Below, piece after piece: positions 9,625 through 62,636 of a stretch of DNA of 64,000 bases. The notes under the pieces are model-generated. The model was not told where the DNA came from and did no database searches. It worked only from the letters and a program-made list of their open reading frames with translations. The number at the start of each line of letters is the position of its first letter. Position 1 is the stretch's first letter. The DNA is taken from assembly GCA_937996685.1 (NCBI GenBank), contig CALKUP010000015.1, positions 71,900-135,899 on the forward strand, given 5' to 3'. This DNA comes from an uncultured bacterium. GTDB taxonomy: Bacteria; Patescibacteriota; Patescibacteriia; UBA9570; XYC2-FULL-38-9. The translations under genes and the position numbers were made by a program.

Positions 9625-10710
9625 TCAGTGCGGCAGAGTCGTCTGGAAGGCCCCTGAAACCGTCACAACGCCGGACACGCCCCAGAAGGGCTGGTTCCCG
9701 GTCACAACGCCTCCGGTGCCTTCGACGCCGAACTGGACACCCTCCCACGGCTCAGCCGTGAGGTTTGCCGTTCCGGCCACGCGGTAGAGGTTCGTCGAGT
9801 CACCGGCTGCATCAAGCAGCGTCGGGACGCTGTTGGCGCCGACGAGCTGCTCGCCGCAACCATCAACGCGCAGGGCGCCAGAGAACTTCTTGAAGCCTCG
9901 GACAGGCCCACCCACTCGCGCAGCCAGGAAGCCGCATTCAGTTGCGGACTGTCCGGGGTTGTAGCCGGCGTTCCCCTGCCAACGCAGAGTTGTCGTTGTT
10001 GACACGTACACTTCTCCGGCCGTGTCGGCATCGTAATGCCCGAGAGTTGGGGCAGCCGTCACATGCGCGGCGACCGAGCCCCAGTCACGGGCAATGCGGA
10101 CACCGCCGTACACCGTCGGCTGCTGCTCAGGCGGCTTCAACCGAACCACTCCGTCCCAAGTGCTGGAATACCCCAGAACGAAGGCGTTGCCGGAGCTGTG
10201 CGCGGCGACAAATTCGGCGCCGAAGTTCCAGTACGACCACTCATACGTCGGAGTGGCGTGCATCACGAACCATTGCTGGCTCACGCTGCCCGGCAGAACT
10301 GGCTCGAAGCCGCGCTGGTTGGCAAAGAGGCCGCCTTGAAGGCTGAGCGTCCAAGAGCGAACCGTACCGCCCAACGTCGAGTTGAGCGTCTGGAGCACCG
10401 GCATGCCGTTGGTGGTCTGCCCGAGCCCGCCGAACATGGCGCTCGAATCCACGACGGCGAAGAAGCTGCCATGCTCGACCTTGAGACCGAACTGCGCCCC
10501 TGCTTGCTGCGGACTGAAGTGCCAGGTCTGCGCGGTCGGAACAGCGACGTTCTGCAACGCCGTGGCATCCGAATTTGCCGGCTGAATGACACCCACAATC
10601 CCCTGTCCAACGCCCGCAAGCGTCAGAGTAACGGTCGTCGGTGCCGCATCCTCCGCAGACGCGGTGATGGACAGCGCGGAGAGAGCGAGCGCGATGATGG
10701 AAACGAACAT
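9625..10710 (-). CDS. Secreted hypothetical protein (signal peptide, Gly/Thr/Val-rich); GC-rich gene
   Basis: 361 aa; N-terminal signal-like MFVSIIALALSALSITASA; about 62% GC versus about 40% in the flanks. Confidence 0.5.
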   Translation of the reverse strand: MFVSIIALALSALSITASAEDAAPTTVTLTLAGVGQGIVGVIQPANSDATALQNVAVPTAQTWHFSPQQAGAQFGLKVEHGSFFAVVDSSAMFGGLGQTTNGMPVLQTLNSTLGGTVRSWTLSLQGGLFANQRGFEPVLPGSVSQQWFVMHATPTYEWSYWNFGAEFVAAHSSGNAFVLGYSSTWDGVVRLKPPEQQPTVYGGVRIARDWGSVAAHVTAAPTLGHYDADTAGEVYVSTTTTLRWQGNAGYNPGQSATECGFLAARVGGPVRGFKKFSGALRVDGCGEQLVGANSVPTLLDAAGDSTNLYRVAGTANLTAEPWEGVQFGVEGTGGVVTGNQPFWGVSGVVTVSGAFQTTLPH

Positions 10711-10976
10711 TGAATGCTCCTGCTGAAGTCATGGTGCCGAAAGTGACACACATTACTGCTTCATGTAGCGAATATTCCTTATCACACTTTTTTGCAGAAC
10801 AAAATACCGATACGGTAGATTTGTGTGGAAAAACAATTTTTACTTTCTATAATAGATATACAATATTATAGACAATAGAAATTGTGTGAGCCCGAGGAAC
10901 AATCATGCTGTGTGATGTCGCGGTACGCGAAGCATCGTGATGATTATTCAAAAGACTCACAAGTGAGCTTCTGTTC

Positions 10977-12488
10977 TTACAGAAGCAGCCAGACACACGT
11001 CGTCGACACGATGGCCAGCGGCACGGTAAACGGCAGTGCCATGTAGAGCATCTTCCCGTAACCGAGCTCGATCTTCGCTGCAAGCGGCGAAGTCAGCAGA
11101 AACAGGAAGGCGGCCTGCCCGTTAGGGGTTGCGATCGACAGGATGTTGGTCCCGGCATTGATCGCGATAGCAAGCTTCTCGAACTCGTGGGCTGTGATGA
11201 CACCCGAATCGTACGCTGCCTTGGCCTCGTTGATGAAGACCGTGGCGACGAAGACGTTGTCGCTGATCGAGCTCAGCGCACCTGATGCAGCGAAGAACGT
11301 AAGGAGGATCCCTTGAGCGTTCTGGGCAAGCGCGAACTCAACCACTGGCTGGAAGAGTTGGTTGTGACCAATGACATCCACGATGCCAAAGAACACAACC
11401 AGAAGCGCTACGAACGGCAGCGAAAACGTGAACGCTTGTCCGATGTGGTGCTCGTCGTTGACGCCGTTGAACACCGTCGTCAGCACAATCAGGAACAAGC
11501 CGAGAATGCCAACCTCAGCGATGTGCGTCGCGAGCCCAGTCACGAGCAGTGCAGCGCACACAGCTTGCACGGCAAGCTTGTAGGTCTCGTCGACCGTGCG
11601 GGTAGAAGACTCTTCCTTGGCGTTGGTCTCGAGCAAGGTGCGGATGGCGACGGGCATCTCTGCGCCGTAACCAAACACGCGAAGCTTCTCGACCAGCACC
11701 GACAGGACCATGCCCGCGAAAAGCGTCGGCACGGTGACTGGAGCCATGTGAACCATGAATCCGACGAAGGTCCAATCCTCGGCGAACTCCACAGGGAGCG
11801 CGCTCTCCATGACATGAGCAATCAGCAAGTTCTGTGGCTCACCGACCTTAGTGAGCACACCGCCGAGCATCGTGCCGATAGCTGCTTGCATCGAAAGCGA
11901 CTGCAAGAACGAGCGGAACTGTGCCAGCTCCGCATCGTCGCCGTCTTCCGTGCGACTACGGTAGTCGTTGTACGTCTTGTACAGCGCCAAGAACACTGTG
12001 ATCACAATCGAAATGACCGTGAGTGCATCGAGGTTCGCTGACAGGACGGCGCCGGACATGCAGAACGCGAGGCCGAGGAGTGACTTCGACTTGATCCCCG
12101 TAAGGATCTTACTGAAGACAAACATCAGTAAGTCCTTCAGGAATGCCACACCAGCGACGACGAAAACCAACAAGAGGATGACCGGGAAGTTGTGGTGCGC
12201 CTCCTCATAGAGACCCTCAACCGTGCCCATGCCCAACACCAGCGACTCCATTACGAGGAGTCCGCCGGGCAGAAGCGGGTAGCACTTGAGCGCACCCGCG
12301 AGGAAGACGATGAACTCGGCCATGATGGCCCAGCCGACCGCGAACTTGCTGAATCCGGTAGCGAGAAGCGCCGGATTCAGAACCAAGAACATGATCACCA
12401 TGGCCTTGTACCACTCGGGCGTCGAGACGCCGAGGAACGAACGGAATGCTGCCTGGGACAGCGAATGTGAATGCTGCTGAGTTTCCAT
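10977..12488 (-). CDS. nhaB: Na+/H+ antiporter NhaB; GC-rich gene
   Basis: 503 aa; close similarity to E. coli NhaB over its whole length (KCYPLLPGGLL..., LDALTV...); GC-rich. Confidence 0.8.
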   Translation of the reverse strand: METQQHSHSLSQAAFRSFLGVSTPEWYKAMVIMFLVLNPALLATGFSKFAVGWAIMAEFIVFLAGALKCYPLLPGGLLVMESLVLGMGTVEGLYEEAHHNFPVILLLVFVVAGVAFLKDLLMFVFSKILTGIKSKSLLGLAFCMSGAVLSANLDALTVISIVITVFLALYKTYNDYRSRTEDGDDAELAQFRSFLQSLSMQAAIGTMLGGVLTKVGEPQNLLIAHVMESALPVEFAEDWTFVGFMVHMAPVTVPTLFAGMVLSVLVEKLRVFGYGAEMPVAIRTLLETNAKEESSTRTVDETYKLAVQAVCAALLVTGLATHIAEVGILGLFLIVLTTVFNGVNDEHHIGQAFTFSLPFVALLVVFFGIVDVIGHNQLFQPVVEFALAQNAQGILLTFFAASGALSSISDNVFVATVFINEAKAAYDSGVITAHEFEKLAIAINAGTNILSIATPNGQAAFLFLLTSPLAAKIELGYGKMLYMALPFTVPLAIVSTTCVWLLL

Positions 12489-12624
12489 TGCTTACTCCTC
12501 TGCTCTGTTACGGAATGTGAATGTGCGTCACAATACGCATACGCGTTGTGAAACCGTATAGAATTAGCACAGTCCTTGTGAAAATACAAGCAATAATAAC
12601 GACTGTGTGTATAAGATTATAAAA

Positions 12625-12770
12625 AGAAAAAAGCCCGCATCAGACAAACGTCATAGCGGGCACAAAAGAACAAAGGGATCTGAATGAATCGTTGTCAGAG
12701 ATATGACCGGAGGGTCCCAGGTAGCGGCAGGTCTGCCGCCGCCTACCTGGGGTTGTCTCGCTGTGAGGTC
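12625..12770. repeat. kup 3' trailer module, copy 1 (imperfect 36-nt hairpin plus rho-independent terminator); inverted copy of 25753..25895
   Basis: Near-identical to the reverse complement of 25753..25895 by direct comparison; contains cccaggtagcggcaggtctgccgccgcctacctggg and gcccgc...gcgggc followed by a T-run. Confidence 0.85.
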
Positions 12771-15149
12771 CTAGTGAGCGCTGATCCGGGGGCCAGCAGG
12801 GCCACCCAAGTGGACCGGCAGAGTCTCCTCTTCAATGCCGTCGTGATCCCCGAGGCCGAAGTAGTACTGCGCCGGGAAGGACAGGCGCGACATTGCGCGG
12901 TAAAGCGCGATTCCGATGCTGGAGTACCAGGGAGCGTCGCTGTCAACGATGATGTGGTCGTTGCCAACCACGATCTCACAGCTACCCGGATCAACGCTGA
13001 TCTGTCCGCTCTCCTTGAGCTCGGTCAGAACCTGCATGATGTCCGGCTGCTCAGCCCAGCCAACGCGGTAAATGACCGAGGTCACACCTTCGCTGAAATG
13101 GATGCAAGACACCCGGTTTCCGTTAGCGCGAGGAGTATCAAGCGGCTCCACCGTCAAGAACATAACGCGTTCGGGAACGGAACCGTGCCGACGAACGTAC
13201 TCGCTTGCCTGCAAGGGCAAAGACTGCTGAAGGCCTGTCACGCCAGTTGCTGACAAGAACGCAAACTTCCTCGCGGTCACCGGAAGTGAGCTGCTTGGAT
13301 TTTTCTGCGCATTCACCAGCTCTTCAAGCGTCATCGCACCTTTTTGCGCTTCTTGGATTGCGCTACGGATATGCTCCCTTGCGATCTTCCAGGACATCAT
13401 GACGACGTAGACGCAGAGACCCATTGCAACAGGGATCCAGGCCCCATCCGTGAACTTCAAGGCATTCGCAATGAAGTACGGCCCGTCAATGAAGACGATC
13501 AAGGAACCCCAAACCACACCAGCCTTCAACGCCCCCCACTTCCAGAGGTACCTGGAGATGAAGTACATGCTGACGCTAGTGATCAGCATCACCGTCGTCA
13601 CAGCCATGCCGTACGCTGCTGCGAGCGCGCTCGAAGTCTTGAAGACCAAGACAAGAAGCGCGCACACCGCGTACAGCATCCAGTTGACCGCGGGGATGTA
13701 GATCTGACCCTGATGATGATCCGATGTATGCAAGATCTCGAGCCGAGGCAGCAAGCCGAAGCTAATCGCTGCAACAGTAAGAGAAAAAGCACCGGATATC
13801 AGCGCCTGAGAAGCAATCACCGTCGCAGGTGTCGCCAGGAACACCATCGGCACCCGGAACATCTCCGGAACAATGCTGAAGAAGATGTTGCCCTCAATCG
13901 GGACACCTCCAGTAGCAATGAACGCTGCCTGACCACCGTAGTTCAGGAGCAGCGACGGCCCAACAATGAAGAACCAGCTCTTCTTGATCGCATCCAGACC
14001 GAAGTGTCCCAGGTCTGCGTACATCGCTTCAGTACCGGTCTCGGCGAGCACGGTCGACCCAAGTATTGCCATGTCGTTCAAGGCCAAAGCCATAAACGCC
14101 ATGCCGCCCACTGAACCGGCCAGGATTGGATGGTTGAAGAGGAAATCCAGAGCCGTCAGCGGATTCAGTGCTTGGATCAAGACCCACGGAGCGGCGGCGA
14201 GCGCCATTCCACCGAAAACAGCCAAGGAGATGAACCACGCAAGCATGATCCAACCAAAGATGCCTCCAATGAACTCCGTGCCCCTGCGCTGAATCGAGAA
14301 CAGCGCAGTCAGGATGGCGAGTGCCAGCGGCACGATGAACGAATCCATCGCAGGGTTCACGACCTTGAGACCTTCAAGGGCACTCAAAACCGAAACCGGA
14401 GGAGTCAGGCCGCCCTCACCGAAGAGGAAGGAAGCTGCGATTGGCAGAACCCGCTCAGCAATCAGCACAGAGATCGACGCCATGAAGCCAGCGCCTGCCA
14501 GCTTCTTCGCGTTGATCTCACGCATGAGGCCCATGAGAGCGAAGGTGCCGCCTTCGCTCTTCATGCTCGCACGCAAGACGAAGACCGTGTACTTCACGGA
14601 CACGACGAGCAGCAGGGTCCAGACGATGATCGAGAGAATGCCGAGAGCAGCAGACTGCATCTCCTGAGCCGGAATCACGAACGCCTCTTTGGCCTCCGTA
14701 TTGGTCAGGCAGTCTTCATTTCCTGCGCAGTGATGCTTCCAGGCCATCTCGTGCAGATGATGGAAGGTTTCGTTCATCGCGTAGAGCGGGCTCGTGCCGA
14801 TGTCGCCGTAGACAACACCAAGAGCACCAAGAAGGGCGGCTCCACCAGCAGCGGCATGCACCTCGGGAGAGAGGTGCGGAGTCGTCTGGGTAGTGAAACG
14901 ACCAGTCGCCTTTTGCCACCACGACTTTTCTTCGGGGGGCCAGTAGGTCAGGCTCTGCTCAAGAGCCAAGGGGTTGTCGTCAGTCTTCAAAGCCGAAGCT
15001 TCAACGGTCACGCTGACCGTAGTGGACGTCTGAGCCTCACGAGCATTGCGAGCCTCGATGTCATCCGCCATCTGCGGACCATCTGCATGAGCATCGCCAT
15101 CAGCATCGAGCTGATGACGAAGCCGCGTTTCATCAGGAGGCCTGGTCAT
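12771..15149 (-). CDS. kup: KUP/HAK/KT family potassium transporter (copy 1) with an N-terminal extension of about 95 aa; GC-rich
   Basis: GVVYGDIGTSPLY signature, 12-TM core and C-terminal cytoplasmic domain; start set at the ATG 15149 immediately after the conserved leader (ORF track extends to 15179). Confidence 0.8.
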   Translation of the reverse strand: MTRPPDETRLRHQLDADGDAHADGPQMADDIEARNAREAQTSTTVSVTVEASALKTDDNPLALEQSLTYWPPEEKSWWQKATGRFTTQTTPHLSPEVHAAAGGAALLGALGVVYGDIGTSPLYAMNETFHHLHEMAWKHHCAGNEDCLTNTEAKEAFVIPAQEMQSAALGILSIIVWTLLLVVSVKYTVFVLRASMKSEGGTFALMGLMREINAKKLAGAGFMASISVLIAERVLPIAASFLFGEGGLTPPVSVLSALEGLKVVNPAMDSFIVPLALAILTALFSIQRRGTEFIGGIFGWIMLAWFISLAVFGGMALAAAPWVLIQALNPLTALDFLFNHPILAGSVGGMAFMALALNDMAILGSTVLAETGTEAMYADLGHFGLDAIKKSWFFIVGPSLLLNYGGQAAFIATGGVPIEGNIFFSIVPEMFRVPMVFLATPATVIASQALISGAFSLTVAAISFGLLPRLEILHTSDHHQGQIYIPAVNWMLYAVCALLVLVFKTSSALAAAYGMAVTTVMLITSVSMYFISRYLWKWGALKAGVVWGSLIVFIDGPYFIANALKFTDGAWIPVAMGLCVYVVMMSWKIAREHIRSAIQEAQKGAMTLEELVNAQKNPSSSLPVTARKFAFLSATGVTGLQQSLPLQASEYVRRHGSVPERVMFLTVEPLDTPRANGNRVSCIHFSEGVTSVIYRVGWAEQPDIMQVLTELKESGQISVDPGSCEIVVGNDHIIVDSDAPWYSSIGIALYRAMSRLSFPAQYYFGLGDHDGIEEETLPVHLGGPAGPRISAH

Positions 15150-15395
15150 GGCATTTTCCCAACGAAGGTCGCGTGGCACTTGCCGACGCGAACAAAGACG
15201 ATATGGTCAAACGGCACTCGCCGCTGACAACCATCGCCTACACACAGATTTTCGGTCTGCATGTTCTCCGCCTGGTGCGTTACGCCAGCTAAGGGTCCTT
15301 TTGACGCTTTAAAGTTTTTTGTCGTTTGTTCGACAAACAACGATTCATTCATGTGAATGTGCACGTTGTTCGATCGGCCATGGTAAGGAAGAAAA
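15150..15395 (-). promoter_or_regulatory. Conserved kup leader, copy 1 (block A of about 80 nt, a variable hairpin, block B of about 120 nt, then ATG)
   Basis: Blocks A and B are near-identical (about 90-95%) to 23351..23592 upstream of the second kup, although the two coding sequences are only about 35-40% identical in protein. Confidence 0.6.
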
Positions 15396-23350: not shown

Positions 23351-23592
23351 CTTCCTTACCATGGCCGATCGAACAACGTGCACATTCACATGAATGAATC
23401 GTTGTTTGTCGAACAAACGACAAAAACCTACAACGCGCAAGAGGCCTTAACCACTATTAGCGCTAGTGGACGGAGAACACACGGACCAAAAATCTGTGCG
23501 TAGGCGATGGTTGTCAGCGGCGGGTGCCGTTTGACCATATCGTCTTTGATCGCGTCGGCAAGTGCCACGTGACCTTCGTTGGGAAAATACAG
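23351..23592 (+). promoter_or_regulatory. Conserved kup leader, copy 2 (blocks A and B)
   Basis: See copy 1; ends immediately at ATG 23593. Confidence 0.6.
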
Positions 23593-25752
23593 ATGGACAG
23601 ACTCAAATCGTGGCTTGGGTGGCTCGCAAAGCTTCCAAGTTCCTGCAAGGTCCTCTTCTTCGCCGTTCTTGCGGCGTTGAAGGTGGCCGCAATCATCCTC
23701 GAGAAGAGGACGAGGTCGCTCGTCATTGCGACCTGGAACGGGCTGATGACCTATGTCTTCTGGTCTGAAGATGCTGCACCTCAGCAGGCAAAAGACGGTC
23801 ACGGCCATCACCCGGAAACGGGGTGGTTCAGCCTTCGCACACTCTGGAATTCGTTGAGCGCACTCGGCATCGTCTACGGCGATATCGGCACGAGCCCGCT
23901 CTACGCTCTGCGAGCCGCACTTGGCTGGTTCAGGGACTCGTCCGGAGTTGTGAGCGGACATCGAGTTCCGATCATCTTGGACAACGTCCTTGGCGTCGTC
24001 TCCTTGATCAACTGGACGCTGCTCATCGTTGTGACCCTGAAGTACGTGGCGTTTGTCCTCCGCGCTGACAATCGCGGCGAGGGCGGCATCATGTCGCTGA
24101 TGGTTCTCGTGACCAGCACCTTGAAACGGCGCGGCTACATGCTCGCGATGACCGGAGCAACGCTCGCTGGCGTCTTCGGCTCGGCCCTGATCTACGGCGA
24201 CGGTGTTCTGACTCCCGCAGTCAGCGTCCTCGCCGCTGTTGAGGGCCTTGGAACAGCCTACCCAATCCTCAGCTTCGTGGTGGTTCCGCTGGCCTGCCTG
24301 ATCCTGATCGGGCTGTTCAGTGTTCAGTCGAAGGGCACCGGCAAAGTCGGCAAGATCTTCGGGCCGATCATGCTGCTCTGGTTCCTCTTCCTTGGGGGTG
24401 AAGGGCTCTATAACATTCTGGTCTACAAGCCGGAGATGTTGTATGCCCTGAGCCCGGTGTACGCGATCAAGTTCCTGATCGCAAACCCGCTCCTCGGAAG
24501 CTCGGTCATGGGCGGTGTGTTCCTGGTGGCAACCGGTGGCGAAGCACTCTACGCCGACATGGGCCACTTCGGCCCCAAGGCTATCAGGATCGCATGGATG
24601 TTCGTCGTCGCCCCAAGTCTGATGCTTCAGTACATGGGACAAGGCGCGATCGTTCTCGTGAACCCAGAAGCGAAGTTCGACCCGTTCTTCGCCGCTGTTC
24701 ATCTCGAGGGAGAAGCGCTCGCGGTGTTCGTCATCTTCCCGACGATCGCGACGATCATCGCGTCTCAGGCTCTGATCTCCGGTGTGTTCTCGCTGACGGC
24801 GCAGGCAATCCAGCTTGGTCTGCTTCCGCGCATGCCGGTGTATCACACCGACGCGAACGAGCGTGGCCAGATCTATGTCCCGGTGATCAACTGGGTTGTC
24901 TGCCTGATGGTCATACTGACCGTCATTGGTTTCGGCAGCTCGGGTGCACTTGAGTCGGCCTACGGCATCGCCGTCTCTCTGTGCATGCTCTTCACGACGG
25001 GCCTGATGATGTTCGCCAGCTTCTACCTCTGGCACTGGCGTGCTTGGGTGGTTGCGGCAGTCTGGGGTCCAATCCTCATCCTCGAAACGTTCTTCGTCTA
25101 CGCAAACGGCCAGAAGATCGCTCACGGCGGGTGGTATCCGTTGCTCATGGGCGCCGTGCTCTTCACGATCATGACCACCTTCAAGAGGGGTCAGGAGATC
25201 AAGGGCTGGTACATGAGCCGGATGTCTTTGCCGGTTGAGCGCTACCTTGCTGCAGCTCAGGACGCGTTCGTCAACCCAAAAACAGCCATCGCCTTGACAG
25301 CCGCTGCGGACCGCGTTCCGTTGGCGCTGCGGGCGATCCTTCTCGCCCAAAACGTCCGCTACGCACAAACCGTTCTTGCGACGGTCGTCACGGCTGACGA
25401 ACCGTACTGGACCGGAGATCGCGTCACTTGGCGCGACCTCGGCAACGGCATGTGGGAGGCGATCATCCATTACGGCTTCATGGAACAGAGCGCGATCAAT
25501 GTCCCTCTTGCACTGGCGCAGAGCCATGTGCCTGAAGGGGTCGACATCGATGGCATCTACATCCTGGGCCGTGATGCGGTAGTCCCTCATCAGGACGTTG
25601 GCGCGCCTGTTGAAGACGATCAGCCTGCTCCGATGGCCTATTGGCGCGAGAAGCTCTTTGAGCTGATGATCGCCAACGCGCAAAACGCGGTCACCTGGTT
25701 CAAGGTGCCGCCTGGACGCTTCCACCAGATCGGCATTTCGGTTGTGATCTAA
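23593..25752 (+). CDS. kup: KUP/HAK/KT family potassium transporter (copy 2); GC-rich
   Basis: GIVYGDIGTSPLY signature; 719 aa from the ATG that follows the conserved leader (ORF track begins at 23524 inside the leader). Confidence 0.8.
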   Translation: MDRLKSWLGWLAKLPSSCKVLFFAVLAALKVAAIILEKRTRSLVIATWNGLMTYVFWSEDAAPQQAKDGHGHHPETGWFSLRTLWNSLSALGIVYGDIGTSPLYALRAALGWFRDSSGVVSGHRVPIILDNVLGVVSLINWTLLIVVTLKYVAFVLRADNRGEGGIMSLMVLVTSTLKRRGYMLAMTGATLAGVFGSALIYGDGVLTPAVSVLAAVEGLGTAYPILSFVVVPLACLILIGLFSVQSKGTGKVGKIFGPIMLLWFLFLGGEGLYNILVYKPEMLYALSPVYAIKFLIANPLLGSSVMGGVFLVATGGEALYADMGHFGPKAIRIAWMFVVAPSLMLQYMGQGAIVLVNPEAKFDPFFAAVHLEGEALAVFVIFPTIATIIASQALISGVFSLTAQAIQLGLLPRMPVYHTDANERGQIYVPVINWVVCLMVILTVIGFGSSGALESAYGIAVSLCMLFTTGLMMFASFYLWHWRAWVVAAVWGPILILETFFVYANGQKIAHGGWYPLLMGAVLFTIMTTFKRGQEIKGWYMSRMSLPVERYLAAAQDAFVNPKTAIALTAAADRVPLALRAILLAQNVRYAQTVLATVVTADEPYWTGDRVTWRDLGNGMWEAIIHYGFMEQSAINVPLALAQSHVPEGVDIDGIYILGRDAVVPHQDVGAPVEDDQPAPMAYWREKLFELMIANAQNAVTWFKVPPGRFHQIGISVVI

Positions 25753-25895
25753 ACAGCGAGACAATCCCAGGTAGGCGGCGGCAGACCTGCCGCTACCTGG
25801 GACCCTCCGGTCATATCTCTGACAACGATTCATTCAGATCCCTTTGTTCTTTTGTGCCCGCTATGACGTTTGTCTGATGCGGGCTTTTTTCTTAT
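25753..25895. repeat. kup 3' trailer module, copy 2 (hairpin plus terminator)
   Basis: Near-identical to the reverse complement of 12625..12770. Confidence 0.85.
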
Positions 25896-28425: not shown

Positions 28426-28613
28426 TGCGAACTCCTTCTACATGCTACATGAGGTAGCTTTTGGGTTTGCTCAATTTCACAGACCGCTCAATAAAAAGGT
28501 GCTACATACCGAATTTGAGTGCACATCCTCCTCTCTCAAATTACGCCTCTATAGGATCATGTTACCCCTCTTTTGTCAATACAAAAAAGACCCTACGGGT
28601 CTCCTTTGTTTTT

Positions 28614-28630
28614 GTGGGCGCTGAGGGGCT
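28614..28630 (-). repeat. 17-bp copy of the tRNA-Val 3' end (att-like remnant) preceded by a terminator-like hairpin
   Basis: gtgggcgctgaggggct is identical to 28812..28828 inside tRNA-Val; both copies are preceded by a hairpin plus cctttNtttt. Confidence 0.6.
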
Positions 28631-28809
28631 TTCGCCTCGCTCGCTCACGCTCACTTCGTTGTCCTGGGCAGCGCCAATTTGCCACTGGCAAATCGTCGGC
28701 ATTCACTGCGTCGCGCTCTCGCTTCGCTCGTTGCGCTCCTGGTTCATTTCTGCCCGTTCTCGCCCGTGCAAACCAAAAGAAAAACAGCCCTGAAGGGCTG
28801 CCTTTCTTT

Positions 28810-28886
28810 TGGTGGGCGCTGAGGGGCTCGAACCCCCGACCCCCTCGGTGTAAACGAGGTGCTCTAGCCAACTGAGCTAAGCGCCC
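28810..28886 (-). tRNA. tRNA-Val (anticodon TAC), CCA encoded
   Basis: Manual cloverleaf: GGGCGCT/AGCGCCC acceptor stem, anticodon loop TTTACAC, T-loop TTCGAGC. Confidence 0.8.
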
Positions 28887-29165: not shown

Positions 29166-29651
29166 TTAACTTTTGTTTACCAATGTTTCTTTCAAGCGTT
29201 TTCCGTAATCACGGATGAAGAATAATTTTGAACGACGCACTTTCGCAATTTTCACAATCTCAATCTTGTCGATGAGTGGTGATGCAAGTGGGAAAATACG
29301 TTCAACACCGACACCAAAACTCACTTTTCGGACAGTCATTGTTTTTGTTGCTGGTGTTTTACCACGCAATGCCAAGATCATGCCTTGGAATACTTGAATA
29401 CGTTCTTTTTCACCTTCACGAATCTTGAAATGGACACGAATTGTCATTCCTGGGCGCAAATCTTGTTCGTTTTTGAGCTCTTCAGCCGCCAAAGCCTCTT
29501 CTTCTGCTTGTTTTTTTGCAGCTTCTGCTTCAGCCGCAGCACGCTCTTCTTCAGACACGTCAGCGACAACTTCAGCTGTTTCTTCAGCAACAACAGAAGT
29601 CACTTCAGCTGCGACTTCTTCTGATTGTGCCTCTTTTTCTTGTTCAGACAT
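29166..29651 (-). CDS. rplS: 50S ribosomal protein L19 with an acidic Glu/Ala-rich N-terminal extension of about 60 aa
   Basis: C-terminal 100 aa match L19 ([29 protein letters not shown]...). Confidence 0.8.
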
Positions 29652-29978: not shown

Positions 29979-30048
29979 ACAAGGGTAATAATAGATTGTC
30001 TTGACGATATTTGCTGAAAATAGTATACTTTTTTTGCTATAAATTCTG

Positions 30049-30121
30049 GGCCTTTAGCTCATCTGGTAGAGCGCCTGCTTTGCACGCAGGAGGTGGCAGG
30101 TTCGAGTCCTGTAAGGTCCAC
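30049..30121 (+). tRNA. tRNA-Ala (anticodon TGC)
   Basis: Manual fold: GGGCCTT acceptor stem (one G-U pair), anticodon loop TTTGCAC. Confidence 0.75.
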
Positions 30122-30131
30122 AACCATTTTA

Positions 30132-30157
30132 AAATCCCCTTTTACGGGGATTTTTTG
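30132..30157. terminator. Bidirectional terminator hairpin aaaatccccttttacggggatttttt (copy 1 of a duplicated hairpin)
   Basis: Perfect 5-bp GC stem with flanking A-run and T-run; near-identical copy at 31358..31382. Confidence 0.7.
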
Positions 30158-30158
30158 T

Positions 30159-31205
30159 TTACCGTCCAAGCGCTTGGTGGAGTCGCTGAATTTTTTCTGC
30201 GCTCCTTGCTCGTACTTTTTCTTCTGCTCGAACACTGATAACCAAATCTTGAACCATCTGTGCAGTATCCATTACTGCGCTGCTTTTGTAACGCGCCGGA
30301 AACTCTTGCAACCACCGCTGACCATCAGGATCAGTTTGCATCCGGGCGATTGCCTGATTTTGTAACAGTGTCGTGCGAATGTGATCTTCACTCATCTCAG
30401 GAGAGAGTTGTGCAAATACCTGTTCAAATTGTGGCACAAACTTTTTCAATGCATTTTCATATTCACTTTGAATCATCTGCTCAACAAATGCGATATCATC
30501 ATCTGAAATATGCTTTTTTAAATATGTAATATCTGTCAGATCATAAGAGCGGCCAGTTTCAATTTTGTGATACACAATGAGCGCCGGATGTGAGATCGGA
30601 ATTTCACCTCCGCTGCGAGTGCGGTAGAATTCAACCGGCTGCATAAATTTTTTTGGAATTGTCGCGCCTGTGTAACGTGTAACAGTATCCCCATTAGAAT
30701 TACGATGTGAGATATGCAAATCTACAAAGTCGAGAGTGTCCCCTACCTCGATTGAATGATTGACCCCCACCTTTGCGATTTGTATATCATCAAGGTCTTC
30801 ACGCAAAATATCAACAGCGCTTATAGACTCAACCCACCGTTGTCCATCTGCGTCTTTTTCGGCTCGATGTTTTGTAAATTGATACCCATGTTTTTGCAAA
30901 TACGCCTCCACTTTTTCAAGCTCATCATCGAACACACCAATATCGACATCTTTATGGTTACGAACAAAACGCCTTTCGAGTAATGAAATATTGGTTCCAC
31001 CATCAAGTTGCCAGGCAAAATCGGCATCCTTCATCAAATCAGCCAATGCGTCAAGTCGCGCTTCCATAAAATCCACTTGTTCAGGAGTCGGCGGTGTGTA
31101 CTGACCAGCTTCTGCTATTTGAGGTTCTAGAAAAGTCTGAAAATCAGGCACAAATTGGCCCTGTTTTGGCTGAGTATTCTCTAGCATAACCTCTCGATTT
31201 ATCAT
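30159..31205 (-). CDS. Nucleotidyltransferase, ANT(2'')/LinA-like domain, with an uncharacterised C-terminal half
   Basis: 348 aa; LDGGTNISLLERRFVRNHKDVDIGVF matches the G[GS]...D.D NTase motif of lincosamide and aminoglycoside 2''-nucleotidyltransferases; C-terminal 170 aa have no match. Confidence 0.55.
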   Translation of the reverse strand: MINREVMLENTQPKQGQFVPDFQTFLEPQIAEAGQYTPPTPEQVDFMEARLDALADLMKDADFAWQLDGGTNISLLERRFVRNHKDVDIGVFDDELEKVEAYLQKHGYQFTKHRAEKDADGQRWVESISAVDILREDLDDIQIAKVGVNHSIEVGDTLDFVDLHISHRNSNGDTVTRYTGATIPKKFMQPVEFYRTRSGGEIPISHPALIVYHKIETGRSYDLTDITYLKKHISDDDIAFVEQMIQSEYENALKKFVPQFEQVFAQLSPEMSEDHIRTTLLQNQAIARMQTDPDGQRWLQEFPARYKSSAVMDTAQMVQDLVISVRAEEKVRARSAEKIQRLHQALGR

Positions 31206-31357
31206 ACGATTTTATGCTATCACCTAATGAGTCGTACCTGCAAATTGTCGATTATATCAAAGAGTTCAGGGTATAGGAATTTTTGTATTTCTTTTAAGAA
31301 GCATACTAGTATTCACCCACAAACAAGAACACGCCTCTTTAAGAAATCTTTCAATTC

Positions 31358-31382
31358 AATCCCCTTTTAACGGGGATTTTTT
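31358..31382. repeat. Second copy of the 30132..30157 hairpin (aatccccttttaacggggatttttt)
   Basis: Direct comparison; the two copies flank the nucleotidyltransferase gene. Confidence 0.7.
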
Positions 31383-31451
31383 GTTTGTGTGAATAGCGTC
31401 TTTCTACTATTATTGTGGTAGCATGGATACTTAATATAGTAAGGATTTTAT

Positions 31452-32186
31452 ATGAAAAAAGGACTTTTGGTCGTCGTGGCTCTTCTCATCATCGCTGCCG
31501 TCGCAATTGGCGGGTACGTGATGTACAACACAACAACAGACGAGGAATCAGAAAAGACAACAGTAAATACAAATTCTACTGTTACGAATGAATCAAAGAC
31601 AAACACCGTAGTTGCAAATGATAACGCAAACACAAATACAGCGACTGCTGATGACCGGTACACAAACTCAAAACTTGGTTTTTCTGTAAAACTTCCTGAG
31701 ACATGGGTTGCATATGAAGGCGATGATTATTGTGGCAAAGATTTGAAAAAAAATAACGCGATTGGATTTATTTCAAAAGATGTCTACAAAAAAATTCAAG
31801 CGGATAATGAAAATTACGCGGCAGGAAAAAGTAAACAAGCTCCTTGCTATGAGGGCGTGAACCCAATCACGATCACAGTCCGTCAATACAACTCTGTTAA
31901 TGAGTTGGAAAACAACACAAAAAAACTCTCACTCACAGAGTATATTGCACAACAAAAGAAAGCAGCTGAAACATCACTCACTCCAATGGTTCAAAAAATC
32001 CAGGGAGAAAACGTGGACAGTTATCGCATCCAAAGTGCATACGACGGCATTTCTGAAGAACATGTATTTGTGACAAGTGGCGCAAAAGTATACAACATCA
32101 CAACGATCTATACAGACGCAGTAGCCGGAAAAACAACAGACACAGCGACACAAAAACAAATTGTTGAGTCATTCAAAAATTTGTAA
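31452..32186 (+). CDS. Membrane-anchored hypothetical protein with an Asn/Thr-rich linker
   Basis: 244 aa; N-terminal TM helix followed by a low-complexity region. Confidence 0.5.
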   Translation: MKKGLLVVVALLIIAAVAIGGYVMYNTTTDEESEKTTVNTNSTVTNESKTNTVVANDNANTNTATADDRYTNSKLGFSVKLPETWVAYEGDDYCGKDLKKNNAIGFISKDVYKKIQADNENYAAGKSKQAPCYEGVNPITITVRQYNSVNELENNTKKLSLTEYIAQQKKAAETSLTPMVQKIQGENVDSYRIQSAYDGISEEHVFVTSGAKVYNITTIYTDAVAGKTTDTATQKQIVESFKNL

Positions 32187-32214
32187 AGACAAACGATGTG
32201 TAATGAAATTATGC

Positions 32215-32242
32215 GGAGCTCACTACTCCGCATTTTTTTATT
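32215..32242. terminator. Terminator hairpin gcggagctcactactccgc plus T-run (copy 1)
   Basis: Perfect 6-bp stem; a degenerate copy lies at 33265..33292. Confidence 0.6.
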
Positions 32243-32333: not shown

Positions 32334-33170
32334 CTACTCTGCCTGCTTTTTTGGAGACCCCGTGCCCCTAGCTGCGGAAGGCATCAGCTCCACAAGCCTG
32401 CTTTGAAGCTCGACCGCTTCGACTTCACGATCTGCTGCTTGACGCAAGACTCGGTCTCGGGCTGCGTTAAGCTGCGCCTGCGCATCAGCCAGGTTATCGA
32501 GCGCAAGCGTCAGTGTTGCGGGATCATGCGCCTTCACTTCTGCATCCCGGAGATGCTCCGCGATAAGCGCTGCGCAATCAACCTGCGGCGGATCTGTATT
32601 GATCTTGTAGGTCTTCATGGGCGTCAAGAAATACAGATCAATGAAGCCGTTATAAGCGCGATTTATGTCGGAAAACGAGGCCCACTTCGGATACGCCATT
32701 CTTAACTTACTAAGATCTACGATTCCTGGATTCTGAGGATGAGGCCCGATGAAGCATTCATCGAAAAAGAAGATCATGTTTTTGATGTATTGAAGCATTT
32801 GCTCACGCTGTGCCTGCAACACCAACAGATCCTCTCCTGTCGCACCCTGGATGGACTTGTTGATTGCCGAGAGCCAGCTCAACACGCGACTGACGTACAC
32901 CGGCAGCAAATCAAAGTGCTGGTAAAGCGCAGTGAACTGCGGGTTAGTCACAGGACACTCATCACGAAAACGGCGCTGGTAACCTTTGAGCGCGGTACGC
33001 AATTGGTCCTCCAGGCTTTGCTCCTGAATCTGCGGCTGCTCCTTGCGCTCTTGCATGGAGTAATACCGAGGCAACACCCTGAAGACACCGAACAAAACAC
33101 CGGCGACGCCACCAAGCATAAAAAAGTCATACACGACGCCTCCAATCCTTGATTTATCAAGGTACATCAA
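32334..33170 (-). CDS. Hypothetical protein with an N-terminal TM helix; GC-rich gene
   Basis: 278 aa; local GC about 58%; no recognisable domain. Confidence 0.45.
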   Translation of the reverse strand: MMYLDKSRIGGVVYDFFMLGGVAGVLFGVFRVLPRYYSMQERKEQPQIQEQSLEDQLRTALKGYQRRFRDECPVTNPQFTALYQHFDLLPVYVSRVLSWLSAINKSIQGATGEDLLVLQAQREQMLQYIKNMIFFFDECFIGPHPQNPGIVDLSKLRMAYPKWASFSDINRAYNGFIDLYFLTPMKTYKINTDPPQVDCAALIAEHLRDAEVKAHDPATLTLALDNLADAQAQLNAARDRVLRQAADREVEAVELQSRLVELMPSAARGTGSPKKQAE

Positions 33171-33264
33171 TCAACGGTTGATTCCGCTATGAGATTGACG
33201 GTAGACCCTATCAAAAGCAACGGCGGCAGTCAATAGTATAATTTATAATTTTATTTTCAATGCT

Positions 33265-33292
33265 GCAGAGCTCACTACTCCACATTTTTTTA
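33265..33292. repeat. Degenerate second copy of the 32215..32242 hairpin (gcagagctcactactccac plus T-run)
   Basis: 24 of 28 nt identical; two substitutions disrupt the stem. Confidence 0.55.
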
Positions 33293-33461
33293 TCAAAAAT
33301 CACACAAAGTGAAGCATGCTATCATATAAAAAGCCTTGGATTCAACGACACACAACACCCCTCATCGCCGCGGTCTTTCTGTTGAGCTTTGCCGTTGTTT
33401 TACTCACCTCTTCATGGAACGACTCGACGATTATTGATGAAATCTCCCACATTGGAGCTGG

Positions 33462-35494: not shown

Positions 35495-35588
35495 AAGCTC
35501 ATATCTCTGGAGAGATGGCTGAGCGGTCGAAAGCAACAGTTTACTAAACTGTCGATCCTTCACGGGATCCCAGGGTTCGAATCCCTGT
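35495..35588 (+). tRNA. tRNA-Ser, anticodon read as ACT (unusual), long variable arm, CCA encoded
   Basis: Manual alignment to bacterial tRNA-Ser: 3-bp D-stem, anticodon stem ACAGT/ACTGT with loop TTACTAA, T-loop TTCGAAT. Confidence 0.6.
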
Positions 35589-35614
35589 CTCTCCGCCACA
35601 TTTTCAACCACCGT

Positions 35615-36523: not shown

Positions 36524-36595
36524 GTTGAGCAACGTCGTAAAGCATCGCGGACCTGACATCTCCGCATCTTTTTTTATTCAACTATTCTGTGTAGA

Positions 36596-61649: not shown

Positions 61650-62636
61650 ATGAAAAAGAAGCCTGTATCTCAAACACTCATTTATCAAACAAAATCCGGA
61701 GCCTTGGAACTGCGAGGCGATTATTCGCGTGAAACCATTTGGGCAACACGCACACAAATGGCCGAGATATTCAATGTGAATCCACCGGCGATTTCAAAGC
61801 ATATTCAAAATATCTATAAAGAAGACGAACTAAAGCGAAAAGCAACTAGTTCCAAAATGGAACTAGTTCAAGACGAAGGGGGCCGCCAAATTAAACGTAC
61901 AGTTGATATTTATAATCTCGATGTCATTATAGCCGTTGGCTATCGAATTAATTCGGTAGTTGGCACTCAATTCCGACAATGGGCGACCAAAACTCTCCGC
62001 TCACACATTGTCGATGGCTACACCATCAACAAAAAACGAATCAAATACAACCTTGATTCATTTTTACAATCAGTCGATGACATTCGCGCGCTATTGCCTA
62101 ACGAACAAGCTATTGATCCAAAAAATGTACTGGATTTAGTGAAAGAGTTTGCAACCACCTGGATGTCACTGGATGCGTATGATAAAGACACCTTACAAAT
62201 CAGTGGAACAACGAAAAAATCAGTCGAACTCAATGGAGAAGAATTACTCAGCGCCATTCAAACATTACGGGCAGAACTCATCAAAAAACGTGAGGCAACG
62301 GACATTTTTGCGCAAGAACGCACAATAAAAAGCGTTGAAGGGATTATCGGAAACGTCATGCAATCATTTAGTGGTAAACCTGTCTATCCAACAATTGAAG
62401 AAAAGGCCGCTCATTTACTCTATTTTATGGTGAAAAATCATCCATTTGTTGATGGAAATAAGAGATCCGGGGCATTTGCCTTTGTATGGTTTTTACGAAA
62501 AACGCCGATTGCAGGCGCTCAAAACATGAACCCTGCAGCCCTCACTGCCCTCACACTGCTTATCGCTGAAAGCAATCCGACCAAAAAAGACCAAATGATT
62601 GCCTTAGTGACAACGCTATTGCGCGGGCAGAAATAA
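61650..62636 (+). CDS. Fic/Doc-family protein with an N-terminal RhuM-like DNA-binding domain
   Basis: 328 aa; Fic motif HPFVDGNKRSGA; N-terminal RhuM/KilA-N-like region. Confidence 0.7.
   Translation: MKKKPVSQTLIYQTKSGALELRGDYSRETIWATRTQMAEIFNVNPPAISKHIQNIYKEDELKRKATSSKMELVQDEGGRQIKRTVDIYNLDVIIAVGYRINSVVGTQFRQWATKTLRSHIVDGYTINKKRIKYNLDSFLQSVDDIRALLPNEQAIDPKNVLDLVKEFATTWMSLDAYDKDTLQISGTTKKSVELNGEELLSAIQTLRAELIKKREATDIFAQERTIKSVEGIIGNVMQSFSGKPVYPTIEEKAAHLLYFMVKNHPFVDGNKRSGAFAFVWFLRKTPIAGAQNMNPAALTALTLLIAESNPTKKDQMIALVTTLLRGQK

Follow-up and report, generated by a model that had tools for sequence, protein, structure and literature searches.

Within a 64,000-nucleotide (nt) stretch of DNA from an uncultured member of the Patescibacteriota (contig CALKUP010000015.1), referred to here as the window, a single gene for a predicted nucleotidyltransferase (NTase) lies beside a tRNA-Ala gene, enclosed by two copies of one terminator hairpin. 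The tRNA-Ala(UGC) gene, which has no encoded CCA, was placed on the plus strand at 30048-30121 by ARAGORN and at 30048-30120 by Rfam (65.9 bits), and it anchors the variable slot described below. Its terminator is reached 10 nt beyond the tRNA end and constitutes the first repeat copy (30129-30160, plus strand), composed of the palindrome AAAATCCCC-TTTTAC-GGGGATTTT and a following TTGTTT, that is, a T-run and the motif GTTT. Folding of this copy gave a 9-bp stem with -12.1 kcal/mol on the plus strand and -13.5 kcal/mol on the minus strand, and since an A-run precedes the hairpin, termination in both directions is possible. The NTase gene (348 amino acids (aa) as listed; 30159-31205, minus strand) was recognized from the open reading frame (ORF) list, Pfam and hhalign, and its stop codon TAA (30159-30161) overlaps the GTTT at the right edge of the first copy. 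The second copy (31355-31387, plus orientation) is located in the divergent intergenic region, 152 nt upstream of the annotated NTase ATG. As no plus-strand gene precedes it in the ORF list, it has nothing to terminate and represents an orphan terminator. Compared with the first copy, its loop is longer by one A, its left edge differs by two changes, and its stem is shortened to 7 bp with a folding energy of -9.8 kcal/mol.

The repeat unit (hairpin, T-run and GTTT) spans about 32 nt, and the two copies match each other with E = 2e-7 in blastn-short. The pattern ATCCCC-N3-8-GGGGAT occurs exactly twice in the 64 kb, compared with a mean of 0.01 in shuffled sequences, none of the 100 shuffles containing two matches. 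In addition, a 28-mer of the hairpin found no further match in the window at up to three mismatches. The two copies enclose only the 348-aa ORF, and the window ORF list, in which ORFs shorter than 50 aa do not appear, shows no other gene of at least 50 aa between this ORF and either hairpin. The arrangement described in the original prediction, in which tRNA-Ala is followed by an ORF bracketed by two copies of the same hairpin, was thus recovered by ARAGORN, Rfam, repeat comparison and shuffling, as was the spacing of about 150 bp between the second hairpin and the gene. The coordinates given there proved exact for the second hairpin (31358-31382) and one position off for the first, which spans 30131-30156 rather than 30132-30157.

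Judging from its upstream region, the bracketed segment appears to be a self-contained expression module with its own promoter. A predicted extended -10 element, TGATATAAT, was read from the minus strand at 31251-31259, about 45 nt upstream of the ATG at 31205; this element is missing from the output of the two-hexamer promoter scan. The true start of the gene is probably the second ATG, at 31187, which would yield a protein of 342 aa, because a GAGAGG Shine-Dalgarno sequence stands 4 nt upstream of it. Rfam identified no RNA family in the region upstream of the NTase gene.

The slot after tRNA-Ala was compared among related genomes. The L19 protein of the window is 79%, 73% and 70% identical to its counterparts in three metagenome-assembled genomes, one of which is labelled Candidatus Kerfeldbacteria. 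In the closest of them (L012, 79%), the same small membrane-protein gene, the tRNA-Ala gene and a similar hairpin are present, and the similarity to the window ends right after the hairpin-TTTTTGTTTA. Herein, the slot is occupied by an unrelated HAD hydrolase gene in antisense orientation, the stop codon of which lies at the same junction as the NTase stop. The membrane-protein gene and tRNA-Ala are also kept in L013 and L014, where the slot contains a gene for a 391-aa protein of unknown type and a gene for a Crp-like regulator, respectively, which are unrelated to each other. The slot genes of L013 and L014 are followed by a shared TSP3-repeat gene, the window homologue of which is 13.6 kb away. 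With four unrelated genes in four genomes, this is a highly variable site. Insertion of a gene beside the tRNA, as originally proposed, is supported by this comparison, since the relatives hold other genes in the slot rather than the same gene with one hairpin; the proposed uninterrupted form, in which tRNA-Ala would be directly followed by the downstream gene, was not found among the related loci. Furthermore, homologue searches with the two flanking proteins of the window returned essentially only the queries themselves, and both are near-ORFans.

L012 contains the hairpin unit not twice but three times. Its second copy reaches 19 nt further upstream, into the 3' end of the tRNA and its trailer (17/19 identical, p = 0.0005), and its third copy is located 4.2 kb beyond the second, after a block with a HigB/Gp49-like and XRE gene pair. 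The second and third copies share the flank CACACTCATT (p = 0.0045), and the tRNA-linked copies of both the window and L012 read CACAACCATT. Such a flank pattern is expected of successive integrations of elements that each carry an attachment site (attP), not of one resident target that was duplicated. Inside the repeat-bounded segment downstream of tRNA-Ala in L012, a Gp49/HigB-like protein (119 aa) and an XRE/MqsA-like helix-turn-helix (HTH) protein (154 aa) are encoded at 1824-2644 and form a probable toxin-antitoxin pair.

The window itself contains a second pair of duplicated hairpins with the geometry seen around the NTase gene. The first copy (32207-32241, plus strand; -17.2 kcal/mol) ends the 244-aa gene at 31452-32186, and the second (33259-33293, plus strand) is identical to it at 31 of 35 positions. 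Two of the changes are non-compensatory, and with -2.6 kcal/mol (z = 0.07) the copy does not fold; it is a relic and not a working terminator. The pair brackets a 278-aa gene without a Pfam match (32334-33170, minus strand), whose composition is foreign (GC 52% and GC at third codon positions (GC3) 60%, against a mean of 45.7% for the window genes and about 39-43% for the immediate neighbours). In this genome, insertions thus repeatedly leave behind orphan terminator copies, which decay and are not maintained as signals. A weak third copy of this hairpin was noted at 36541-36575. In addition, the last ~17 nt of tRNA-Val(UAC) (minus strand, 28810-28886) are repeated together with its terminator 198 nt downstream (copies at 28583-28630 and 28781-28828); between the copies lie about 150 nt of GC-rich sequence (cgagcgaagcgagagcg...), and the arrangement may be a small repeated element or the relic of an attachment site. 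Similar GC-rich stretches were observed after tRNA-Ala genes and NTase genes in L007, L011 and L190.

The linkage to tRNA genes recurs across the family to which the NTase belongs. A tRNA gene adjoins the NTase gene in six of eight distinct contexts, and in five of the eight it is a tRNA-Ala of one of two isoacceptor types, within 40-630 nt. In the window, the NTase gene is convergent with tRNA-Ala(UGC). A tRNA-Ala(CGC) is found 38 nt upstream in L004-L006, 105 nt upstream in L190 and, together with tRNA-Pro, 630 nt upstream of an HTH-NTase gene pair in L011, while the tRNA-Ala(UGC) of L007, situated 410 nt upstream, is truncated by the start of the contig. The sixth linked context (L193) has tRNA-Ser(GGA) 310 nt upstream. 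The exceptions are L010, with a seryl-tRNA synthetase gene upstream, and L001, with murJ upstream and alaS 840 nt downstream. Decay beside the tRNA is visible in L190, where the HTH partner gene has shrunk to its last ~14 codons, a state attributable to deletion. No convincing direct repeats were found around the homologues in L001, L010 and L011. In L007, perfect 55-nt repeats were considered as a possible bracket and discarded, as they stand on either side of runs of N and have the appearance of scaffolding artefacts. The same locus holds a partial copy of the NTase 3' end (1-330 and 1722-1844) between tRNA-Ala and the HTH-NTase pair, interrupted by N and bounded by these 55-mers; this partial copy is either left over from a tandem module or an effect of the scaffolding.

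A parallel to known tRNA-associated insertions is seen in L004. Nine nucleotides past the NTase stop codon lies the fragment CCGGGTCCGACTCCCGG-TGAGTCCA, corresponding to a T-arm together with an acceptor end of the Ala type (U70, C71, C72, A73); the intact upstream tRNA has a different T-stem. Over 417 kb (both strands), the T-arm pattern had 27 matches at 3' ends of tRNAs and a single one elsewhere. The fragment is too short for Rfam, which did not report it even at a permissive threshold. Islands that target tRNA genes restore the target and leave behind a fragment in a displaced position (PMC4383910), and the sequence of L004 reads as precisely this signature, a regenerated target and a displaced fragment, around a single gene.

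These observations bear on the mechanism that the original prediction had named, namely duplication of the target. In such a process, a hairpin-targeting machinery (transposase-like or Cas1-like) would cut both sides of the stem-loop, and gap repair would double the whole terminator. The terminators of tRNA-Ala and of the 244-aa gene are each doubled around one antisense gene, which fits a structure-directed, sequence-independent process; within each genome the copies have a common loop, which reads TTTTA(A)C for the window and TTTCAT for L012; and on its right the repeat breaks off sharply, with divergence immediately after GTTT. However, the distal copies of L012 (B and C) share two substitutions absent from the tRNA-linked copy, which duplication of one site cannot yield, and the T-stem of the L004 fragment, being unlike that of the intact tRNA, shows that the fragment is not its copy. 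Moreover, the inserts, as read from their sequences, have no terminal inverted repeats, and the duplications of 32-45 nt far exceed the target duplications known from transposons. Target duplication is therefore not established as the mechanism and is regarded as improbable.

A recombination event without any site-specific recombinase was also weighed. Here, DNA taken up by natural transformation would be anchored at tRNA-Ala and joined illegitimately at the microhomology of the hairpin. Competence is generally attributed to Patescibacteria. The tRNA-Ala gene and its promoter region, which side-by-side reading by eye found identical in the window and L012, could serve as the anchor, and the absence of a recombinase from the 43 of 52 window ORFs scanned is in keeping with this explanation. 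Nevertheless, it predicts neither the precise displaced fragment with another T-stem in L004 nor the three ordered copies in L012, and the second hairpin pair adjoins no conserved anchor, so that this route is considered highly improbable.

Our preferred reading, to which we assign a probability of roughly 0.5, is that the 1.2-kb segment at 30161-31354 represents a minimal, integrase-less islet resembling a cis-mobilizable element (CIME), located at a hot spot on the 3' side of tRNA-Ala(UGC) and formed by recombination between attachment (att) sites. In the proposed mechanism, an exchange of the tyrosine-recombinase type would join the terminator palindrome after the tRNA to a matching site on an incoming circular DNA, with the insert then flanked by two copies of the site as counterparts of attL and attR. 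Either the gene for the recombinase would later have been lost by deletion or the enzyme would act in trans, so that the unit now resembles a CIME; the distal copy, having no role as a terminator, would be decaying for that reason. The palindrome has inverted arms of about 11 nt and a loop of 6-7 nt, a layout that would match the core site of a tyrosine recombinase.

Several findings weigh against this reading. Neither the islet nor the 43 of 52 larger window ORFs that were scanned yielded an integrase or other recombinase, and none was present among the genes called at the related loci. The window repeat stops short of the tRNA: upstream of the hairpin, the second copy does not significantly resemble the tRNA 3' end (any extension in that direction, p = 0.39), and a classical displaced tRNA fragment is thus lacking. 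No genome with an empty site was retrieved among the related loci. The NTase gene is host-like in composition (GC 43%, GC3 35%) and no outlier, so the composition test gives no support for a recent foreign origin; an old acquisition, or one from a close relative, would be compatible with these values. The NTase family found no match in PLSDB plasmids, GenBank phages or IMG/VR. The hairpin belongs to a generic, common type of terminator: in metagenomes, the pattern TCCCCTTTYAN{1,2}GGGGATTTTT gave at least 120 single, unrelated matches, none like the window or L012 beyond the hairpin, and in IMG/VR it gave 12 unrelated ones. Finally, the window contains duplicates of two different hairpins, which one sequence-specific recombinase does not readily explain.

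The host-like composition, the missing recombinase, the absence of the family from plasmids and phages and the commonness of the hairpin type would equally suit a gene that never moved. It would be a long-term resident, and the second hairpin would have arisen by local duplication or gene conversion, or would be kept independently as a regulatory or insulating element. Against such residence stand the different gene that L012 holds between copies of the same unit, the four unrelated slot genes in four genomes and the repeated association of the family with tRNA genes. Furthermore, the second copy terminates nothing and the copy at 33259-33293 does not fold, which indicates that no selection maintains the copies. 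Immobility of the gene is accordingly judged to be distinctly unlikely.

The att-type islet can be compared with two classes of known elements. Like the tRNA-integrated islands catalogued by Islander (PMC4383910), the loci run from an intact tRNA gene to a direct repeat and carry cargo that varies among relatives, and in L012 and L004 displaced tRNA 3' sequence lies at the far end; tandem repeat copies are a further likeness. Unlike them, the window unit measures only 1.2 kb, with one gene and no integrase, and its repeat covers the terminator and not the tRNA, so that both the integrase and the displaced tRNA fragment by which Islander islands are recognized are absent. CIMEs are integrative elements in decay, in which attL and attR persist after loss of the genes for integration and transfer (PMC5704250). 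The window unit shares with them the att-like direct repeats and the lack of integration and transfer genes, and tandem repeat-bounded segments and decay, as in the truncated HTH gene of L190, are likewise common to both. However, CIMEs were defined for integrative and conjugative or mobilizable elements of Firmicutes with a known cognate integrase, whereas the window unit is much smaller and has no known cognate element or integrase, and its repeats are putative att sites.

Another possibility is that a trans-acting cassette system moves single genes (the NTase, the HAD hydrolase and the 278-aa gene) into terminator palindromes, those of tRNA-Ala and others, or else that the NTase is directed at tRNA-Ala; this is considered unlikely. 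In a cassette system, the terminator stem-loop itself would be the recombination site, and in function the system would parallel integrons or pdif modules, on the basis of tRNA and terminator sites. Three one-gene units without an integrase but with intact bracketing repeats (in the window, L012 and L004) are hard to explain by independent decay alone. As in integron cassettes and the XerC/D-dependent pdif modules of Acinetobacter, the units are single-gene modules with short palindromic sites and an ORF stop codon abutting the site, and the inverted arms of the window site can be read as an 11-6-11 nt layout that would resemble the core site of a tyrosine recombinase. In contrast to those systems, the bracketing copies in the window are direct, near-identical and not hybrid. 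An actual integron cassette was rejected, as the perfect stem-loop of 24 nt compares with 57-141 nt for the imperfect palindrome of attC, the heptamers after the hairpin, GTTTACC and GTTTGTG, do not fit the R''/R' core GTTRRRY, and no IntI was found. A dif/Xer site was likewise discarded, the sequence bearing, by reading, no likeness to the dif consensus.

The protein encoded by the islet belongs to the PF10706 superfamily (Aminoglyc_resit; ANT(2'')/LnuA), which it matched with 32.2 bits against a gathering cutoff of 21 (residues 53-112; profile positions 4-63 of 149). It falls outside the curated Lnu resistance families and the DUF1814 toxins: the NCBIfam models for Lnu(A), Lnu(E), Lnu(AN2) and Lnu(P) scored 12-21 bits against cutoffs of 300-350, the best being 21.5 to Lnu(E) over residues 48-108 only, and Pfam gave no match to PF08843/DUF1814 at E <= 1. 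A profile of the family retrieved the LnuA chains 4wh5 and 4fo1 from among solved structures at 5e-6. By hhalign, LnuA of plasmid pKH21 was matched with 92.9% probability, residues 9-150 of its 161 corresponding to residues 49-227 of the window protein, and the aligned span includes a C-terminal YDLT motif common to both. A short peptide around this motif found no match in the Protein Data Bank (PDB); the correspondence to LnuA came from hhalign. The minimal LnuA/ANT(2'')-type fold that the original prediction had proposed was thus detected by both Pfam and hhalign, but the C-terminal extension is shorter than the ~170 aa given there, since the LnuA-equivalent part reaches residue 227 and only about 115 aa (233-348) remain.

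Along the chain, residues 1-32 are predicted to be disordered, the LnuA-like catalytic domain with Y221-D-L-T takes up residues 49-227, and a helical domain without a known fold makes up residues 233-348. In a 17-sequence family alignment, G69, D86, D88, D162, K214, Y221, D222 and D225 are invariant, and the catalytic motifs hG[GS], [DE]x[DE] and third carboxylate are present as G69, D86-x-D88 and D162. The AlphaFold model (pLDDT 80, pTM 0.72) likewise comprises a disordered N-terminus, an NTase core and an all-helical part at residues 235-346. When this model was compared with the PDB by Foldseek, MenT1, LnuA, ANT(2'')-Ia, TM1012 and FKRP were matched with target TM-scores of 0.5-0.66, all within the N-terminal ~200 residues. 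The top match was the MenT1 toxin (8an5_B; E = 7e-5, target TM-score 0.63), and the target TM-score of LnuA was 0.66; for MenT1, LnuA and ANT(2'') these scores lay between 0.6 and 0.66. Among viral models (BFVD), transferases of the LicD/FKRP type were matched. The C-terminal domain modelled alone (pLDDT 77) gave no fold match below E = 1. Altogether, the predicted structure and the alignments indicate a full LnuA-like catalytic unit joined to a helical C-terminal domain of about 115 aa without a known fold.

A word-indexed search returned 17 relatives, and an exhaustive profile search returned 333 representatives at E <= 1e-3, of which 98 were at E <= 1e-30. The family is therefore real, unnamed and uncharacterized, and comprises, as a lower bound, at least 333 clusters at 50% identity; most representatives are 340-390 aa long and are matched over their full length. 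In the P0002/P0007/P0010 subgroup only, a 67-aa HTH_3 protein is encoded before the NTase with a gap of 4 nt, and according to PADLOC comparison this partner resembles the XRE-type control (C) proteins of restriction-modification (R-M) systems and not known MenA antitoxins. Most members, the one in the window included, have no antitoxin-like partner gene. For the NTase itself, the PADLOC models gave no credible match. Two family contexts have an adjacent HNH and methyltransferase R-M system, and other neighbours of family members are murJ, GT2 and UDP-glucose dehydrogenase genes. Domain fusions were also observed among the representatives P0051, P0065 and P0037: a SAM methyltransferase fused to the NTase, the NTase fused to a PRK/AAA_18 P-loop kinase, and the C-terminal helical domain alone fused to a radical-SAM domain. 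Such fusions may hint at the substrate.

The conserved residues suggest, with fair confidence, a Mg2+-dependent two-metal nucleotidyl transfer, in which D86, D88 and D162 would direct a nucleoside monophosphate from a nucleoside triphosphate to a hydroxyl group of the substrate. As to the substrate, a small, probably cationic, antibiotic-like molecule is tentatively favoured. A small-molecule role of the Lnu/ANT type is suggested because the sole sequence homology is to LnuA/ANT(2'') and because the family proteins are acidic (pI ~5; LnuA 4.8). With Lnu(A)/LinA (4fo1, 4wh5), the window protein shares homology over the whole LnuA chain, including hG[GS], DxD, the third Asp and a C-terminal H-x-x-YDLT, as well as fold and acidity. 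It is, however, twice the size, with an N-terminal tail of ~45 aa, an inserted beta-rich segment and the 115-aa helical C-terminal domain, and its family was not found on plasmids. Against the antibiotic-like substrate count the wide margin by which the curated Lnu models were missed and the C-protein-like HTH partners and R-M neighbours, which point to a conflict or toxic function.

A tRNA or RNA 3' end, as in the MenT toxins, is a possible but less likely substrate. A role in conflict or as a toxin is suggested because no structure matches better than MenT1, the C-protein-like HTH gene occurs in three close relatives and R-M systems are found as neighbours; a constitutive toxin is disfavoured because most members lack a partner gene. 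The MenT/AbiEii toxins contain a DUF1814 domain with four signature motifs (PMC10435456). The likeness to MenT1 (Rv0078A) and this group lies in the structural match, in the small upstream partner of some members and in variable or defence-type neighbourhoods, whereas the window protein has neither a DUF1814 match nor an adjacent partner, the partner elsewhere is an XRE/C-protein HTH, and the resemblance is at the level of the fold only. An envelope polymer, as for LicD/FKRP, is an improbable substrate, for which the BFVD matches and the murJ, GT2 and UDP-glucose dehydrogenase neighbours provide weak hints.

If the enzyme acted on tRNA-Ala, by extending or blocking its 3' end in the manner of MenT or by repair or maturation, the genomic linkage would be functional and the hairpins incidental. 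The five tRNA-Ala contexts out of eight, a further one with alaS 840 nt downstream, the top Foldseek match to a tRNA-modifying toxin, the toxin-antitoxin-like arrangement of some members with a small HTH gene 4 nt before the NTase and the missing encoded CCA of the window tRNA-Ala are all in line with such a function. On the other hand, HAD, Crp-like and unknown genes fill the same slot in relatives, so that the site is variable whatever its cargo, and one context has tRNA-Ser. The absent PF08843/DUF1814 match, the lack of an antitoxin-like partner in most members and the resemblance of the HTH partner to R-M control proteins, not to MenA antitoxins, argue in the same direction, as does, more weakly, an acidic pI of ~5, which is unlike that of typical RNA-binding enzymes. 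A functional explanation of the linkage is thus held to be improbable.

If the att-type islet is correct, the locus would provide a compact example of the gain or exchange of a single accessory gene at a tRNA-Ala hot spot in the ultra-small genomes of Patescibacteria, in which a terminator palindrome serves as the recombination site with no integrase in sight. In addition, attention is drawn to an unnamed LnuA-related family with an extra domain, which travels with tRNA genes, C-protein-like regulators and R-M systems and is for this reason a candidate new enzyme of resistance or conflict. As tRNA-linked islets and decayed elements are already well known, current views are not overturned; the locus is a clean example of tRNA-linked gene insertion and no new kind of system. 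Its value lies in a testable model system and in an enzyme family worth characterizing.

Several further features of the window were noted. The L19 protein (window 29166-29651; L012 10004-10474) carries a conserved N-terminal extension of ~50-60 aa that is acidic and rich in Ala and Glu. Two pairs of direct repeats of 83-88 nt (60950-61037/62662-62749 and 61456-61538/63081-63163), 91-96% identical and ~1.7 kb apart, surround a gene with RhuM/Fic domains (61650-62636), an arrangement that may be a duplicated module. Blocks of 58-64% GC (GC3 up to 77%) at 9625-15179 and 23428-25833 have a foreign or unusual look in a genome of ~43-45% GC; the second coincides with an 801-aa ORF (23428-25833) that has no Pfam match and has a 742-aa ORF open on the opposite strand. 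Bacterial serine tRNAs of this type are expected to have the anticodon GCU. The tRNA-Ser at 35509-35598 has the anticodon loop TTACTAA and thus the anticodon ACU with A34, which is unusual for a bacterial serine tRNA.

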